Virus record (IMG/VR): IMGVR_UViG_3300034374_009547
Length of the DNA: 64,000 bases
From: a virus
Lineage: Duplodnaviria; Caudoviricetes
Reading direction: 5' to 3' (one strand)
The stretch's first letter is position 1; every line of letters begins with the position of its first letter. Both the position numbers and the translations under genes were made by a program. This document shows, one piece after another, positions 1,840-12,900 of the stretch. Under the pieces are notes generated by a model. The model worked only from the letters and a program-made list of their open reading frames with translations, was not told the origin of the DNA and made no database searches.

Positions 1840-3012
1840 ATGTCAGAACTACTAGAAAGTCGCTGGCAAGATACAAAAACAGCACTTCTTGAAGGCCTAT
1901 CAGGCAATAAGAAAGCAGTAATGGCTTCAACATTAGAAAATACTCGCAAGTATTTGGCTGAAACTGCAACTGCTGGTGCTACATCTGCCGGTAACATCGC
2001 AACACTTAACCGTGTTATCCTACCAGTGATTAGACGTGTTATGCCAACCGTCATCGCTAATGAAATCGTTGGTGTTCAACCAATGACTGGACCAGTTGGT
2101 CAAATTCACACACTACGTGTTCGCTACAGCGACACAGCAGGCTCAGGCGCAGCAGGCGCAGTAGCTGGTGAAGAAGCACTATCACCATTCAAAATCGCAG
2201 AAGCATATTCAGGTAATGCTACAACAGCAAAAGCTGATGCAACTGCGGCACTAGAAGGTGCAGCTGGTAACAGACTAAGCATCCAGATCTTGAAACAGAC
2301 CGTGGAAGCTAAATCACGTAAGCTATCAGCACGTTGGACATTTGAAGCGGCACAAGACGCTCAAGCACAACACGGTATCGACGTAGAAGCAGAAATCATG
2401 GCTGCACTAGCACAAGAGATTACTGCAGAAATCGACCAAGAGATTCTAGCATCTCTAAACACACTAGCAGGAACAGGTACAGACACATTTAACCAAGCGG
2501 CTGTATCAGGTACTGCAACATTCGTTGGTGACGAACATGCTGCACTAGCAGTATTAGTTAACCGCGCAGCAAACCGCATCGCACAGCGTACACGCCGTGG
2601 TGCAGGTAACTGGGCTGTTGTTTCACCAGCAATCCTAACCGTACTACAAAGTGCAACTACATCAGCATTTGCACGTACTACAGAGGGTACATTTGAAGCA
2701 CCGACAAACACAAAAATGGTTGGTACATTGAACAATGCAATGAAAGTATATGTAAACACATATGCAGCAGACGACGATGTACTAGTTGGTTACAAAGGTA
2801 CTAGCGAATCAGACGCAGCAGCGTTCTACTGCCCATACATCCCATTGATGAGCAGTGGCGTTGTACTAGATCCGACATCATTCGAACCAGTTGTGAGCTT
2901 CATGACACGTTACGGATATGTTGAGCTATCAAACACAGCATCGTCGCTAGGTAACGCAGCTGACTACCTAGAAAAGGTAGAAGTAAACAGCGGAAACCTA
3001 AGCTTCAGCTAA
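1840..3012 (+). CDS. gp23: Major capsid protein (T4 gp23-like)
   Basis: GVQPMTGPVGQIHTLR, AKSRKLSARWTFEAAQD, AAAFYCPYIPL, FMTRYG motifs; SD AAGGAG; probable maturation site LAE|T. Confidence 0.97.
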   Translation: MSELLESRWQDTKTALLEGLSGNKKAVMASTLENTRKYLAETATAGATSAGNIATLNRVILPVIRRVMPTVIANEIVGVQPMTGPVGQIHTLRVRYSDTAGSGAAGAVAGEEALSPFKIAEAYSGNATTAKADATAALEGAAGNRLSIQILKQTVEAKSRKLSARWTFEAAQDAQAQHGIDVEAEIMAALAQEITAEIDQEILASLNTLAGTGTDTFNQAAVSGTATFVGDEHAALAVLVNRAANRIAQRTRRGAGNWAVVSPAILTVLQSATTSAFARTTEGTFEAPTNTKMVGTLNNAMKVYVNTYAADDDVLVGYKGTSESDAAAFYCPYIPLMSSGVVLDPTSFEPVVSFMTRYGYVELSNTASSLGNAADYLEKVEVNSGNLSFS

Positions 3013-3032: not shown

Positions 3033-3060
3033 AAAATAGGCCCTACGGGGCCTATTTTTT
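3033..3060 (+). terminator. Rho-independent terminator after major capsid gene
   Basis: AAAATAGGCCC-TACG-GGGCCTATTTT hairpin running into a T-tract. Confidence 0.9.
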
Positions 3061-3074
3061 TGGTATATATTACA

Positions 3075-3914
3075 ATGAAGTTTAATGTTAATAAACATAT
3101 TGAATATAGAAACAATCGATTTACCAAAGTATCAATATCTAATCCTAAGTTATTAGGATTAGCTACAATAGAAATTAATCCAACAGAATTATGCAACAGA
3201 ACTTGTAGTTTTTGTCCTAGAGTTAATCCTTTATTATATCCAAATCGTAATTTAAATATGACAATAGAAACAGCTCAATTAATTGTTGAACAATTATTAG
3301 ATGCTGAGTATAATGGAGATATTAATATTACAGGATTTGGCGAACCATTATTAAATAAAGACATTGTACAAATATGTACTATATTTTCTAAACATTATCA
3401 TACTGAATTAATAACAAACGGCGATAATATTTTAAATGGTAAAATTACTTTACAAGATTTAGAATTCTTAGATTTATTAATTATTGATTGTTACGATGGC
3501 AAAGAACAAGTAAAAAAATTTAAAAATTTACTTAAAAATAAAAAAAATAAATTTATATTGCGTCCACATTATGACACTGGAGATCCTGCATTAATTAATC
3601 AATATGGATTTAACAACAGAGGTGGATTATTATACAAAAAATCTAACAGCAATCCTTGTTATATGCCGTCATATAAAGGATTTATAGATTGGAATGGAGA
3701 TGTAAGACTTTGTTGTAATGATTGGAGTAGGAAGCAATTACCATTTGGAAATATACATAATAATACATTTTCAAAAATATGGATGAATAATAATTTTGTA
3801 AAATTAAGACAAGAATTATACAACGGTAATAGAAATTTTAGTAATGCTTGCGAGACTTGTGATGTATGTGGTACAAAAGTAGGAAAAAATAGTGCTGAAT
3901 TATTTTTAAGCTAA
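3075..3914 (+). CDS. Radical SAM protein with SPASM/twitch domain
   Basis: CNRTCSFC (CxxxCxxC), GFGEPLL, C-terminal CYMP...LCCNDW...CETCDVC. ATG at 3075 preferred over the TTG at 3060 inside the terminator. Very AT-rich. Confidence 0.9.
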   Translation: MKFNVNKHIEYRNNRFTKVSISNPKLLGLATIEINPTELCNRTCSFCPRVNPLLYPNRNLNMTIETAQLIVEQLLDAEYNGDINITGFGEPLLNKDIVQICTIFSKHYHTELITNGDNILNGKITLQDLEFLDLLIIDCYDGKEQVKKFKNLLKNKKNKFILRPHYDTGDPALINQYGFNNRGGLLYKKSNSNPCYMPSYKGFIDWNGDVRLCCNDWSRKQLPFGNIHNNTFSKIWMNNNFVKLRQELYNGNRNFSNACETCDVCGTKVGKNSAELFLS

Positions 3915-3921
3915 GTACATA

Positions 3922-4623
3922 ATGGATATTAGTATTGAAAAAACTCCAAAACAAAAGTTAAGTAAATATGCAATTGATACTGCAAGCGGTATTAGTATTA
4001 CTCATTTGCCTAACACAAGTCTTTCAAAGGTAAAAGATGCAGCAATAGAAATTAATGATTTAGCTGGAAGTTCAAAAGCTATGGCACATATTGCTGCACG
4101 TAATATACAAAGTGAAACTGAACTACATGAAAATTGTATTGCAATGCGCAAAGCAGGTGTTGATAAAGTTTTACTTATTGGAGGCAGTACGTATCATGGA
4201 AAAGTTTTTCAAACATTTTATGAAGTAAGAGATGCTATAGAATCATATGGCTTTGATATGTATTGTGGTGTATATCCACAAAGTGAAACTTACTCTAACA
4301 TGGCATACACAAAGTATTTGCATTTTAAAGGAGGAATAAGTCAACTATGTTTCAATCCTAAAATGTTAAATACTTGGGAAAAGAAGACACGGTACGGTGT
4401 TGCAACTAACTGCTCTCTAGACGGTTTATGGAAATATGCAAAAATTTGTGGAATAACAGATAGTGTTGCTTATGCATTAGGCAATTTAAGAGGATTAACA
4501 TACGTTACTATGAAAGGATTTAACACGGTAAAGTTTGTAAAAGATTTAAGAAATGACAATCCTATACATCTTTATAATTTTGGAAAGTTAGATCAAACAC
4601 TATTACAATTGGAGATGATGTAA
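3922..4623 (+). CDS. Methylenetetrahydrofolate reductase-like (short MetF-like TIM barrel)
   Basis: ISITHLP, AHIAARNIQSETEL, AGVDKVLLIGG, GVYPQ and SQLCF resemble alphaproteobacterial-type MetF; shorter than typical. Confidence 0.65.
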   Translation: MDISIEKTPKQKLSKYAIDTASGISITHLPNTSLSKVKDAAIEINDLAGSSKAMAHIAARNIQSETELHENCIAMRKAGVDKVLLIGGSTYHGKVFQTFYEVRDAIESYGFDMYCGVYPQSETYSNMAYTKYLHFKGGISQLCFNPKMLNTWEKKTRYGVATNCSLDGLWKYAKICGITDSVAYALGNLRGLTYVTMKGFNTVKFVKDLRNDNPIHLYNFGKLDQTLLQLEMM

Positions 4624-4820
4624 TGCCAACAGGAACAATTTACAAATATAATAAAAATAGAAAGTTTAGTGTTATTAGACCTGATAACTGGAAAACAGGA
4701 TTAATTGATGTACTATTTGAAACAATTACTTTTGATGCAAAACTAGGTGATCGTGTTGAATACGATCAAATACAAATAAAAAGTAAAAGATATGCACAAA
4801 ATCTTAAAAAAATAGGTTGA
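4623..4820 (+). CDS. Cold-shock-domain-like (OB-fold) small protein
   Basis: 65 aa; GTIYKYNKNRKFSVI...DVLF...GDRVEYD...RYAQNL follows the CspA pattern with degenerate RNP1/RNP2. Confidence 0.65.
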   Translation: MPTGTIYKYNKNRKFSVIRPDNWKTGLIDVLFETITFDAKLGDRVEYDQIQIKSKRYAQNLKKIG

Positions 4821-4845
4821 CCTTTGTGTATTCTTTTGCTATATT
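4817..4845 (+). promoter_or_regulatory. Sigma70-type promoter
   Basis: TTGACC (4817-4822), 17 nt, TATATT (4840-4845); -35 overlaps the stop codon of the cold-shock-like gene. Confidence 0.75.
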
Positions 4846-4851
4846 AAGAAC

Positions 4852-5131
4852 ATAACAAAGACGACGGTCCGAGTTAGATAGTGCAAGGAAACGCTGCTTG
4901 GTAGAGGCAGTAACTTGGCTAGTAGTTGTAGTGACAGCGCATGAGCAAGGAGACTTGAAGATGTGTTTTTGGAAGTAACTATCCGATGCTAGGCTTCGCT
5001 TTTATGGAAGGATCTACAAAGGCGATTGTTGGTAATCCTTAATCCAACCTATCATATATTATTAATCGTAATACGCGATGCTGAACCTCGATTAATAAAT
5101 TAAAAAGGTCTACTCTGGTAGGCCTTTTTTT
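4852..5131 (+). ncRNA. Candidate structured non-coding RNA (~280 nt), family not recognised
   Basis: Lies between a sigma70 promoter and a terminator, no ORF of useful length, GC-richer than flanks, several nested stems (4869-76/4911-18; 4936-42/4961-67 with CAAG-GAGA-CTTG; 4926-31/5014-19; 5028-32/5044-48; 5059-68/5089-98). Confidence 0.6.
5102..5131 (+). terminator. Rho-independent terminator
   Basis: AAAAAGGTCTAC-TCTG-GTAGGCCTTTTTTT. Confidence 0.85.
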
Positions 5132-5161
5132 GTGAACATAATAACCCATTTTTATGTTTTT

Positions 5162-5169
5162 GATAAATA
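5162..5169 (+). promoter_or_regulatory. T4-like late promoter (GATAAATA)
   Basis: Matches the TATAAATA-type motif that recurs upstream of structural genes in this window. Confidence 0.7.
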
Positions 5170-5261
5170 CTTATGTTAAGGTAACGAGCCTCAACGAGGA
5201 CTTATGAGGACCCAACCTCGTAGACCATAGAACGGCAAATGATTAAAAAAAGGAGAAAATC

Positions 5262-5627
5262 ATGGGACGCCCAGTAAACAAAAGAAACTTCGGTACAACC
5301 GGTGTAGACGCAACACCAAAGGTGCCAATTAGATTCCACGACGGATCAAGTTTAATTGAAGGATATATTCTTTCACAAAGAGGAACAAATAAATTTAATT
5401 GTTCAAACGACGGTGACACAATCACAAGAGTATGCAGACTTACATCAGACGGTTCAGCACCAAACGCAAATTTCGAATGTCAACTAATTGGTATCGGTGC
5501 AGGCGGCGGTGCAATTGCAATTAAGAAATTGTTCAACAGAACAGCAGTAGATTACAATAACAATCGTTATACATGGACAACAGAAGACGACTCTACAGAA
5601 TCATTGCTAAGATTAACTGCAATTTAA
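5262..5627 (+). CDS. Hypothetical protein, probably virion-associated
   Basis: 121-aa ORF, SD AAGGAG, first gene after a late promoter, co-oriented with fibre genes. Confidence 0.75.
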   Translation: MGRPVNKRNFGTTGVDATPKVPIRFHDGSSLIEGYILSQRGTNKFNCSNDGDTITRVCRLTSDGSAPNANFECQLIGIGAGGGAIAIKKLFNRTAVDYNNNRYTWTTEDDSTESLLRLTAI

Positions 5628-5638
5628 GGAGTTAAACT

Positions 5639-6646
5639 ATGGGTATCTTTGTTAATCGAATAGGTGGTAACTACTACAAATTACAAGTTGATACAGGCGG
5701 AGATATTATTCTTGATGTCGGTACAACGGGTAAAGTTACCATTGACGGTGACTTAGATGTGTTAGGTGAACAAACCAGTGTTGGATCCACTCAACTTGTT
5801 GTAGACGATAATACTATTACCGTTAACAACGGAGAGACTGGAAATGGTATAACACTAGGAACTGCCGGACTTATTATGGATCGCGGTACTGATGATGATG
5901 CTCACTTCTTTTTTGATGAATCATTAGTCGGTAAAGGTGCTGAAATTGATGGTGCATTTGTAACAAGAATTGCCACAGGCGATTTAGTTAGCTTATACAC
6001 CAATGCAATATTAACAAACGGCGAGCCACTATATTTGGTAGGTACTGGTACAGGACTTGCAACGGTAACTGGTACAACTGATTATGAAAAACAAATTTGG
6101 AATTACACAGGCGATAACATTAACTTAGAACCTTTAAATCCAGATGGATTAGTTGCACCTAACGATGACGATGCTTTACTCAATGTAAAAGGTTTACAGG
6201 ACTATGTCCGAGACTATTTTGCAATTAACTTTCAAGAAAAAATTACCACAGGAACTTTAACTCCTACAAGAGTTGAAGCATTTGATACAGAAACTGGTGG
6301 AGTTACAAGTAGAGTTGAAATTAGTGTAGATGATACAATAATTGCAACTTTTTATGAAACTAGAGTAGAATTTGAAAATTTAAGATTTGACGATGACACT
6401 ATTACTAGTAACGGAATCAACGGTGATGTTGTGCTAAGAGCAGCAGGAACTGGATTTATTAAAATGGATGATTACACAAATTATACCATTCAAACAGATC
6501 CAGCTAGTCCTCCAACAGAAGGCACATTATTGTATAGTAAAACATTAGGAGATGGTGGTACAGGTTTGTATTTTAAAAATGAAGACGGGACATCAGACGA
6601 ATTGGTTAGTAGGAATAAAGCATTACTTTATAGTATTATATTTTAA
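5639..6646 (+). CDS. Putative tail fibre/baseplate-associated structural protein
   Basis: G/T/D-rich beta-strand content (VTIDGDLDVLGEQTSV, VDDNTITVN) like fibre shaft segments; SD AAGGAG. Confidence 0.6.
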   Translation: MGIFVNRIGGNYYKLQVDTGGDIILDVGTTGKVTIDGDLDVLGEQTSVGSTQLVVDDNTITVNNGETGNGITLGTAGLIMDRGTDDDAHFFFDESLVGKGAEIDGAFVTRIATGDLVSLYTNAILTNGEPLYLVGTGTGLATVTGTTDYEKQIWNYTGDNINLEPLNPDGLVAPNDDDALLNVKGLQDYVRDYFAINFQEKITTGTLTPTRVEAFDTETGGVTSRVEISVDDTIIATFYETRVEFENLRFDDDTITSNGINGDVVLRAAGTGFIKMDDYTNYTIQTDPASPPTEGTLLYSKTLGDGGTGLYFKNEDGTSDELVSRNKALLYSIIF

Positions 6647-9900: not shown

Positions 9901-12900
9901 ACATTCCAAACTGATGTAAGCAATTTGTTCGATGTAGTGCTTGACATTATTGAATTTAATCAATTACCAAGTGAAGGAACCGTGTATCCTGAACCAGGGC
10001 CTGCAAGTACTGAATTAATTAATTCAACAAATCAACTAATTGCAAACAAAGATTTTTTAGTAGCTGAAGTTATTGCAAAGATTGCAGTAGATAACTTTGT
10101 TTATGATCAAGCAAAGTGCGAAAGAGATACTGGAATCATACTAGATGGTGTATATTATGATGCAGCATTTGGAACCAATTATAATGCAGTGACAAGCGGT
10201 CTTGCATATCAAAGAGGTAATAGTGCAAAAGTAATTAGTGATCAAATTACAGAAACCGTTGGTGCATTAACATTTGCAAAAGGTGAAGCAGCAACAGCTT
10301 TAGTATCTAATACTACCGCAGTGTCTAGAAGTAATGCAGCATTTGATGAAATTATTGATATTATTCAAAATGGAGCCGAAGGTACAGATCAAGCAGCAGA
10401 TCCTTTAACGTTTCCTAATCCAACAAGTGCAACCGCAGCACAAATTGCTGCAAAAGATCAACTACAGAATAACAGAGACTTCTTAGCAGCGGAAGCAGTA
10501 TCTTACATTCAAAATAACTATCAAAACTTTACTTATAATAGTGAAAAGTGTGAACGTGATGTTGGATTAATCATGGATGCTGTTGCACTTGATGTTGTAT
10601 TAGGAACAAACTTTAATGCAGTTACAGCAGGTTTAGCATATCAACGTGCAAGCAATGACTACTTACAAGACAATCAAAAAATACAAACACTTAGTGCTTT
10701 ACGTCAACTTAAAAAAGAAATAGTAGAAATTGGATTAAGTGACGATGCTGAACCATTAGCTGAAGCAGCTATGGACGAAGTTATTGATATTTTAGAAAAT
10801 GGTGTAATTAGTACTGATACAGCCGCGGACGCACTAGTATTTCCTGCACCTAGTAGTCTACCAACTGCAAATGCAGTTGAAGCAAAAGATCAACTTGTTG
10901 CAAACAAAGAGTTTATTAAAGACGAAATAATTGCATGGATTGGTGTAAACTATCCTGCTTTAACATATGATGCAGTAAAATGTGAACGTGATGTTGGATA
11001 TATTATTGATGCATTATGTCATGACATTTTATACGGTGGAAATAGTGCCACTAAAATTGCAGCAGAAAGTTACTTTGTTGGTGCTGCAAGTCAACTAGGA
11101 TCAGGTCAACAAGCTGCGACCGTAGCAGCATATCAGAGACTAAAAGATGTTGTTGGTGACGTAGTTATGGAATTATCTGTTGTTAAATCAGCAGGTAATG
11201 CGTTAAATCAAGATACTTCAGGAACACCAGCAAGTTCTACTGAAGCAGATGATGTAGAAGGTTTAGTTCAAATAATTGAAGATGTAATTGCAGCAGGAAA
11301 CATAAGCGGGTTACCTGCAACACAATATCCATCTTTAACTTGGGCTGCAAATGATTTACAAGAAGCATATAGTCAAATTAAAGGAAATAAAGAATTTGTA
11401 CAAGAGCGTATATTAATTCATATTGCAAATAATTTCCAAAGTTTTGATTATGATGAAGTAAAATGTCGTAGAGATGTAGGAATTATGATAGAAGCAGTTG
11501 CTTATGATGCAGCAATTGGTACAAATTACAATTCTGTAACAGCAGGTCTAGCCTATCAAAGAGCAAATAGTTCATATGTTTTAAGTGGACAAAACTTACA
11601 AACGGTGCTGGCAATTAGATATCTAAGAGATCAAATTGCAGCTAACGGAACTTTACAAAGTAGTTTTAGAAGTGCTACAACTGCTGGGTTTAATGAAATA
11701 ATTGATATTATCGAAAATGGTGTAGTAAGCACAGATACAGCAGCTGACGCTCTTGTATTTCCAGATCCTGGTATAGATGCAAATCAAGTCAATGCAAAAG
11801 ATAGAATGATTGCTAACAAAGAATATGCAGCAAAAGAAACTTCTGCATTTGTTACAAATAACTATCCAGCGGTAGTTTTTGATAGCACAAAATGTGAAAG
11901 AGACGTAAAATATATCATTGATGCATTATGTTATGATATTATGTATGGCGGCAATCTTGCAACTAAGCAAGCCGCAGAAAGTTACTTTGTTGGTGCTGCA
12001 AGTCAGTTAGGTGCTGGACAAGCTACCGCTACCGTTGCTGCATACAACGAATTAGCAAACTTGCTATCAGATATTGTTCAAAACATTGCTCATGCAAGTA
12101 ACGAACAAGTTGTTGTAACACAAGACACAAGCGGAAGCGCATCAGATGCAGGTACTGGTGGTGAAATACAAGACTTGTTACAAATAATTGAAGATGTTAT
12201 TGCAGCAGGAAATATTACTAATATTCCAGCAGATTCTAACACTGATATTACTTGGACTAGCGTATTAAATCAAGATAATTTTACTTCATTAGTTGCTACT
12301 ACAAGTGATTATCAAAATTTAGTTATAAACTATATAGAAAGAACATTTACAAGAACATTTACATTTAATGCTACAAAATGTAATAGAGATACCAAGTACA
12401 TTGTTGATGCTTTAACATATGATATTATTTACGGTGGTAATGCTGCAACACTTGATGCTGCTAGAAGCTATTATGTTGGAACAACAAGTCAAGTTACAGG
12501 ACAACAACAAGAAACAGCAAATGCTCTTGGATGGATTAAAACTTTATTAGGTGATGTGTTATTAGATGTTGCAGTTGCCGATCCAGAACAAACTGCCGAA
12601 ACACAAGATGTTACAGCAGGTGCAGCAAGTGCAACTGAAGTTACTAGAGCAGAAACATTATTACAAATTATTCAAGATGTTATTACTGATGGTTTAGATC
12701 AACTGCCAACAGAAACATTCCCTTCTACAGGGTGGATTTCTGCAGGAATTCAAACTGCAATTGATAACTTAGTAAGTGAAAAAACAACAATTGTTAATGA
12801 TACTATAAGTTACATTGAAACAACATATAATGGCTTCAGTTATGATATTGATAAGTGTTCAAGAGATACAGGATACATTATTGATGCTGTTACACACGAT

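Follow-up and report, generated by a model that had tools for sequence, protein, structure and literature searches.

An uncultured aquatic T4-like jumbo phage almost certainly encodes, at positions 4850–5057 of the window (the whole 64,000-nt stretch of DNA that was analysed), a divergent member of the manA RNA family (RF01745). The finding is thus of a known family, in the form of a divergent member scoring below threshold, and not of a new class of RNA. Its nine-helix fold is shown by covariation. The unit in which it lies, with a sigma70-type promoter on its 5′ side and an intrinsic terminator on its 3′ side, very probably gives rise to a free-standing RNA product. Taken as a whole, the observations are best explained, on balance, by a free-standing, sigma70-driven manA RNA that multimerises through covarying loops.

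Identity and fold of the RNA

A permissive Rfam scan of 4700–5300 yielded a manA match at 4858–5058 that spans the full model, 1–192, with 39.2 bits and an E value of 1.2e-8. The score is under the Rfam gathering threshold of 55.2, and it is because of this that the RNA escaped both the default scan and the first-pass annotation, which had taken it for a member of a novel family. The Rfam search that had been suggested as a check did return no family at gathering thresholds across the 64-kb window, but the match below threshold removes the novelty. Other sub-threshold Rfam matches, MicC, PhrS and STnc40 among them, cover the terminator or a hairpin only and were dismissed. The manA RNA motif was first described by Weinberg et al. 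2010 (Genome Biol 11:R31; PMC2864571).

The assignment to manA rests on this full-length match, on homologues at the same locus that score above gathering, and on the reciprocal recognition of an annotated manA by a model built around the window. The comparison set consisted of 64 IMG/VR loci with a gene for a relative of the 121-aa protein that is encoded 3′ of the unit. More than 26 of these 64 have, at the corresponding position, a homologue of window 4853–5062 (nhmmer, E down to 1e-60), and conservation among the same-locus homologues ends after 5062. Against two of them, L001 and L006, the first nhmmer pass gave E values of 6e-23 and 1.4e-23, and with a profile these became ~1e-53. The orthologous RNA is manA above gathering in L046 (89.3 bits), L018 (85.3), L062 (66.5), L012 (62.5), L001 (59.0) and L006 (55.4). 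A covariance model made from the window and 15 relatives, R1, scores 217 bits at the window and recovers 51 further copies from IMG/VR contigs collected by a short pattern. It matches L018 and L046 with 86–87 bits, L012 and L013 with 45–46 bits, and the annotated manA of Synechococcus phage S-CREM1 (OP535465, 10215–10429) with 59.1 bits and E 7e-17. L025 has a canonical manA by eye, yet was unmatched by R1 at default filters. Searches with blastn against GenBank phages gave zero matches both for window 4600–5700 and for the canonical manA of L046. Just 11 of the 37 R1-positive loci scanned pass Rfam gathering and the other 26 are below it; with ~70% of one large manA subgroup under the Rfam threshold, the family must be more widespread in aquatic phages than annotation indicates.

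The core and its helices are as follows.

4850–5057, + strand: manA-family RNA core, P1–P9 (RF01745 match, R1, covariation)
4853–62/4867–76, + strand: P1, manA core helix
4877–81/5049–53, + strand: P2, closing helix of the manA core
4884–87/4914–17 plus 4894–99/4905–10, + strand: P3, manA core helix
4919–24/4987–92, + strand: P4, manA core helix
4925,4927/4934,4935, + strand: P5, manA core helix
4937–42/4961–66 plus 4946–49/4954–57, + strand: P6, manA core helix
4950–4953, + strand: loop L6, GNRA tetraloop GAGA on the extended P6 (GAGA or GAAA in most homologues)
4969–73/4982–86, + strand: P7, manA core helix
4996–5002/5019–25, + strand: P8, manA core helix
5028–32/5044–48, + strand: P9, manA core helix

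All the manA consensus helices can form in the window, P1 with a 3×3 internal loop. In the covariation alignment, which was fitted to the model and so favours the structure, 92.0% of the cells of the manA-derived structure are in standard pairs among 65 distinct homologues; the margin is very large, as shuffles have 63.3% of cells paired, with 0 of 500 reaching the observed value, and slid controls, in which the 3′ partners were moved by 1–3 columns, have 36–44%. Double-sided changes are present at 58 of the 60 pairs. The collection of homologues and test of covariation that the first-pass annotation had proposed therefore came out in favour of its view that the RNA is structured. The closing helix, P2, is formed by GAUAG 4877–81 and CUAUC 5049–53 and encloses the entire multi-stem core; in P2 the four inner pairs reach 100% pairing and have double changes. 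In Rfam's structure line the brackets mark nesting and denote no pseudoknot.

Folding energy is in keeping with a structured noncoding RNA on the + strand, as had been claimed, and so are the homologues in dozens of related phage contigs and the strong covariation. Relative to shuffles the + strand has a z of −2.46 (4 of 200), and the − strand folds no better than its own shuffles (z −1.14). The manA core, of ~206 nt, has a G+C content of 43% versus 35% for the window. Several of the pairings that had been picked out from the letters are part of the supported fold, namely the CTGC/GCAG hairpin, AGCGCAT/ATGTGTT with its CAAG-GAGA-CTTG cap, TTGGA/TCCGA and GTTGG/CCAAC. Three others had to be given up because they conflict with the covariation-supported fold: CCGAGTTA/TAACTTGG and TTGTAG/CTACAA show background pairing (61–74%, with few double changes), as does the proposed pseudoknot GATAGT/ACTATC (4978–83; 61–74%), whose GATAG pairs instead with CTATC at 5049–5053.

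The transcription unit and its surroundings

The elements on either side of the core are these.

4817–4845, + strand: sigma70-type promoter (−35 TTGACC 4817–4822, 17-nt spacer, extended −10 TGc-TATATT 4837–4845)
5059–5098, + strand: perfect 10-bp hairpin, a 40-nt insertion between manA core and terminator
5102–5131, + strand: intrinsic terminator (A-tract, stem GGTCTAC 5107–5113/GTAGGCC 5118–5124, loop TCTG, T7 5125–5131)
5163–5169, + strand: ATAAATA box, T4-late-promoter-like, assigned to the 121-aa gene (GATAAATAC at 5162–5170)
5188–5264, + strand: probable freshwater-2 RNA motif (RF02980), leader of the 121-aa gene 5262–5627, outside the manA unit

The description of this region as an ORF-less unit running from promoter to terminator was accurate. 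There is no credible ORF in window 4817–5131, the ORFs that overlap 4852–5131 having 25–36 aa only. In a promoter scan the sequence at 4817–4845 scored 10/12 plus TG, and transcription is predicted to start near 4852; the type of promoter would be in accord with early expression. A TTGACx-16/17-TATAxT box is found at a constant distance 5′ of P1 in all 21 of 21 unique syntenic loci, and before the manA RNA in 55 of the 65 distinct homologues. The terminator stem (5107–13/5118–24) is present in both folds and absent from the list of a simple scanner. Among the 65, ~38 have a hairpin and T-run at most ~45 nt 3′ of the manA core. The 10-bp stem at 5059–5098 that had also been reported does exist as a hairpin, but it is a single copy in the window and is missing from every homologous locus. 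It was considered as a mobile or repeated element and this was rejected, the hairpin being unique in the window and its two IMG/VR matches being in unrelated AT-rich coding sequence.

RNA libraries provide hints of expression. The window stretch is present in 14 freshwater-metagenome DNA runs and six metatranscriptome runs, and the expression data are Logan contigs over 4400–5700, which come without strand and without ends and are poor in abundance. Contigs identical to the window at 4870–5076 and 4870–5091, from two metatranscriptome studies, extend from the manA core into the hairpin (to 5076 and 5091); their k-mer depths are 119 and 30, and those of flanking-gene contigs 3–20, all these values being k-mer means of contigs that partly include a related strain. 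A contig of the related strain, with nine differences from the window RNA, has depths of 522 and 87. The shared start at 4870 was entertained as an RNA end and set aside, being probably a strain-variant branch point in assembly. One low-depth contig (4521–4884; n=1) crosses the promoter, and 5104–5147 is uncovered in four RNA runs, though holes in contig data prove nothing. The proposed look into metatranscriptomes did reveal short contigs inside the unit. [A strain variant over window 4900–4966, in RNA runs X15 and X18, has the compensatory changes 4926 T>C with 4934 A>G and 4948 A>T with 4955 T>A, and its L3 loop has GGU>UAC.]

The T4 late promoter is TATAAATA. A TAAATA box occurs no more than 137 nt 5′ of the ATG in 40 of 40 unique upstream regions of the 121-aa gene family, and at 73–101 nt in 39 of the 40; it is also there in loci that have no manA. 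Contigs of the downstream gene begin at 5185 in three studies, ~16 nt 3′ of the ATAAATA box, which is a weak hint of a separate downstream 5′ end. The leader of the gene is a probable freshwater-2 motif that matches the full RF02980 model with 44.9 bits (E 1.2e-5), below its gathering threshold of 49.9. It is an element separate from manA, behind its own TAAATA box, and the RF02980 consensus ends in AAGGAGAAAAcAAAUG just as the window copy ends at the start codon, ATG 5262. At the orthologous site freshwater-2 is above gathering in 12 of the 20 related loci scanned, plus 5 further loci, and it precedes the 121-aa gene in relatives with manA and in relatives without. This arrangement suggests that freshwater-2 leads a late transcript of the phage. 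Within window 5137–5264, 3′ of the terminator, there is also a conserved box, CATAATAACCCATTTTT, which in relatives reads CATTATAACCCATTTTT. A tblastn search of phages with the 121-aa protein gave zero matches.

The window has 15 copies of ATAAATA on its + strand versus two on the − strand. The + strand sites are at 5163, 16406, 27336, 34509, 35664, 39012, 39737, 42424, 42941, 46615, 48896, 51778, 54256, 55650 and 61499, and with a strand bias that matches gene orientation they are likely to be a map of the late promoters of the phage.

The capsid protein encoded at 1840–3012 is Gp23-like (Pfam E 3e-101), its nearest relatives, at 65–69% identity, being those of Rak2/GAP32/CBB-type jumbo phages. 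The manA unit behaves like a cassette: in L012–L017 it alone separates the capsid gene from the 121-aa gene, in L021, L022 and L032 it is missing, and in the window three extra genes accompany it. Directly behind the major capsid gene of the window, at 3060–3914, is a radical SAM/SPASM-domain gene (PF04055, PF13186), and two ORFs without known family (233 aa and 65 aa) come after it; this block of genes is missing in relatives, e.g. L021 and L032.

Elsewhere manA keeps different company. In S-CREM1 and in several of the loci it is 1–8 nt from tRNA genes, as follows.

OP535465, 10132–10501: manA of S-CREM1 (10215–10429) with tRNA-Leu and tRNA-Asn on its two sides
L107, 3186–3553: manA with tRNA on both sides
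L138, 8617–8909: manA with tRNA on one side
L101, 3368–3660: manA with tRNA on one side
L116, 185–469: manA with tRNA on one side
L110, 4151–4439: manA with tRNA on one side
L080, 105–395: manA with tRNA on one side

At such distances tRNA processing would release a discrete RNA. Two further RNA elements were encountered on contigs that carry manA. Five related phage contigs have a glutamine riboswitch (RF01739, above gathering) 140–300 nt 5′ of manA, on its strand (L018:2214–2264, L046:2298–2345, L067:2812–2861(−), L118:1573–1622(−) and L139:3026–3075(−)), the recurring order being glutamine riboswitch, manA and, often, freshwater-2; none was found in the window. tmRNA-like genes of permuted type, detected by ARAGORN and with the tags ANDNRAPAMAIAA and ANYNNFALAA, are on manA-carrying phage contigs (L085:12895–13351, L132:4524–4829, L077:9273–9578).

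Loop pairing, self-assembly and the alternatives

Four of the hairpin loops form two complementary pairs.

4928–4933, + strand: loop L5, GUAGUG, with UAGU complementary to ACUA of L7
4974–4981, + strand: loop L7, AGUAACUA, partner of L5, with UAACUA at 4976–81
5009–5012, + strand: loop L8, AGGA, within AAGGAU at 5008–13, partner of L9
5033–5043, + strand: loop L9, UAAUCCUUAAU, with UCCU at 5036–39, partner of L8

Across the homologues the L5-L7 pair takes the forms UAGU/ACUA, UGGU/ACCA, UGU/ACA, UGC/GCA and UAU/AUA, a covariation that 0 of 500 partner shuffles attain. For the L8-L9 pair the forms are AGGAU/AUCCU, AUGA/UCAU, CAGA/UCUG, GAGAG/UUCUC, GCUGAU/AUCAGU, GUGG/UCAC, AUGGAAU/AUUCCAU and GGUA/UACC. 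Counting of L8-L9 by fixed columns of the covariance model alignment is blurred by loop register, giving 63% paired overall and 75–90% for the central pairs, and for that reason a local-helix test with swapped partners was used. The mean helix is 4.19 bp for cognate loops versus 3.39 ± 0.12 for swapped partners (0 of 500), and helices of at least 4 bp are formed by 67% of cognate versus 37% of swapped combinations. Covariation thus shows the complementarity of both pairs to be under selection. The pseudoknot previously put forward between AAGGA(U) 5008–13 and (A)UCCUU 5035–40 is this L8-L9 pair, and the picture of a multi-stem RNA with loops that kiss has held, both in the manA helices and in the L8-L9 covariation. 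Complementarity between loops also figures in Weinberg et al. 2010, where it is labelled 'pseudoknot?'. The covariation is compatible with pairing within one molecule or between molecules.

Pairing between molecules has a precedent. According to a recent preprint (bioRxiv 10.64898/2026.07.01.735769, 1 July 2026), manA RNAs examined by cryo-EM form pentamers that close into decamers, and one manA forms a 60-subunit T=1 cage of ~430 Å. The pentamers are described there as joined by the intermolecular kissing loops L5-L7′ and L8-L9′, with L8-L9′ in the cage-forming manA, and another variant as having the contacts L6-P6′ (GNRA/receptor), L5-L7′ and L3-L8′. These oligomers were seen in vitro only, with RNA at mg/mL and 10 mM Mg, and with other manA sequences than that of the window. 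From a count of the hairpins, the covarying loops of the window would be the L5-L7′ and L8-L9′ loops of the preprint.

The mechanism favoured would have host sigma70 RNA polymerase start at ~4852, from the near-consensus extended −10 promoter, as the sequence and the conservation of the box suggest. Termination at 5107–5131 would then free an RNA of ~280 nt, for which the RNA-library contigs are supporting hints. The RNA would fold into the nine-helix manA core attested by covariation; L5 would pair with L7 and L8 with L9, between molecules if the cryo-EM structures of its relatives are a guide, and copies would associate into closed oligomers built of pentamers and acting in trans. That the window RNA does form an oligomer in the infected cell is a plausible component of this scheme, but one on which we would not rely.

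The alternative that fares best, and which we still consider unlikely, is that manA is free-standing and acts as a monomer, for instance as a decoy or binding partner of a host or phage protein or of a metabolite. In that case the L5-L7 and L8-L9 pairings would be tertiary contacts inside one molecule, and oligomers an in vitro effect. Everything that speaks for a discrete RNA serves this alternative equally, loop covariation fits pairing within a molecule equally well, P8 and P9 adjoin at a distance of 2 nt, and the assemblies reported in the preprint were made at high concentrations of RNA and Mg. However, the cryo-EM models of several manA variants, as the preprint presents them, have the loops paired between subunits and not within one, and this favours multimerisation.

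A cis-acting manA, as a riboswitch or leader in which binding of a small molecule sets read-through of the terminator (5107–5131), and with it early expression of the 121-aa and structural genes, is less probable again. The family was put forward as cis-regulatory, a riboswitch candidate, by Weinberg et al. 2010 (PMC2864571), and a terminator 3′ of manA, as in the window, fits a read-through switch. In several phages (L084, L076, L101, L102, L096) the end of manA is 7–25 nt before a ribosome binding site and ATG, as a cis riboswitch would have it, and the family may act in cis in some settings. There is also a slight excess of complementarity between the 3′ part of manA and the 5′ arm of its cognate terminator (−6.9 versus −6.3 kcal/mol with those of others; 6 of 200 swaps), a comparison that is confounded by relatedness; it could reflect an antiterminator or mere relatedness. 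Against such a switch, the sequences of the terminator stems are unrelated among lineages while the 3′ end of manA stays constant, and in the window a stable hairpin of 40 nt intervenes between core and terminator. Moreover a late-type box and a leader belonging to the 121-aa gene itself are conserved whether or not manA is present, manA inside tRNA arrays has no gene to regulate, and no manA ligand is described in the papers found. Conservation of promoter and terminator, the separate box and freshwater-2 before the downstream gene, and the occurrence of manA in tRNA arrays are the reasons for preferring a discrete RNA to a leader. The notion of the first-pass annotation that the RNA belongs to a new family, unrelated to any described, can be put aside, since the lack of a gathering-level Rfam match and of blastn matches in GenBank phages is outweighed by the full-length manA match below threshold (39.2 bits), the same-locus homologues above it and the reciprocal match with the manA of S-CREM1.

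Comparison with the manA family and other RNA multimers

Rfam files manA as a cis-regulator, and the 2026 preprint presents decamers and a cage of 60 subunits, made in vitro of RNA alone, without giving them a biological setting. In many phages manA stands as a self-contained gene, having either a promoter and terminator of its own or tRNA genes on its flanks, and it also appears as short, deep metatranscriptome contigs; the loops that make intermolecular contacts in vitro covary in nature. More tentative, and less likely than not, is the general proposition that phages have in manA a gene whose RNA product self-assembles, and not a riboswitch. Its free, abundant transcript, made from its own early promoter and terminator or cut from tRNA arrays, would have intermolecular kissing loops maintained by selection, and would give ring- or cage-like particles in infected cells that serve the phage, e.g. 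by sequestering or scaffolding. For testing this, the unit in the window would be a clean natural example. With this locus and its relatives the existence of RNA cages in infected cells becomes a directly testable question.

The window RNA and RF01745 have an identical order and nesting of helices. Shared between them are the P1 hairpin with a GACG-type loop, the closing helix, P3, the three-hairpin junction, P8 and P9; the junction loops GURGUR, GNRA and ACYA are common to both, as are the L5-L7 and L8-L9 complementarities. The carrier is in both cases a T4-like aquatic phage. Within manA the subgroup to which the window belongs is set apart by GUGCAAGGAA...AACUUG in P3, by a P1 of greater length and by a second stem that extends P6, and the 40-nt hairpin tail is confined to the window. 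Whereas the window has a promoter-to-terminator unit, manA in Rfam is of type Cis-reg, with a position in the 5′ UTR of a gene, a trait that belongs to the annotation and not to the fold, and the capsid of the window phage is Rak2/GAP32-like instead of that of a classical cyanomyovirus.

Compared with the other natural RNA-only multimers that the preprint lists, manA, at ~200 nt, is much shorter. Should the window RNA assemble, it would be one more phage-borne structured RNA in which, as in those RNA-only multimers, conserved loops make RNA-RNA contacts.
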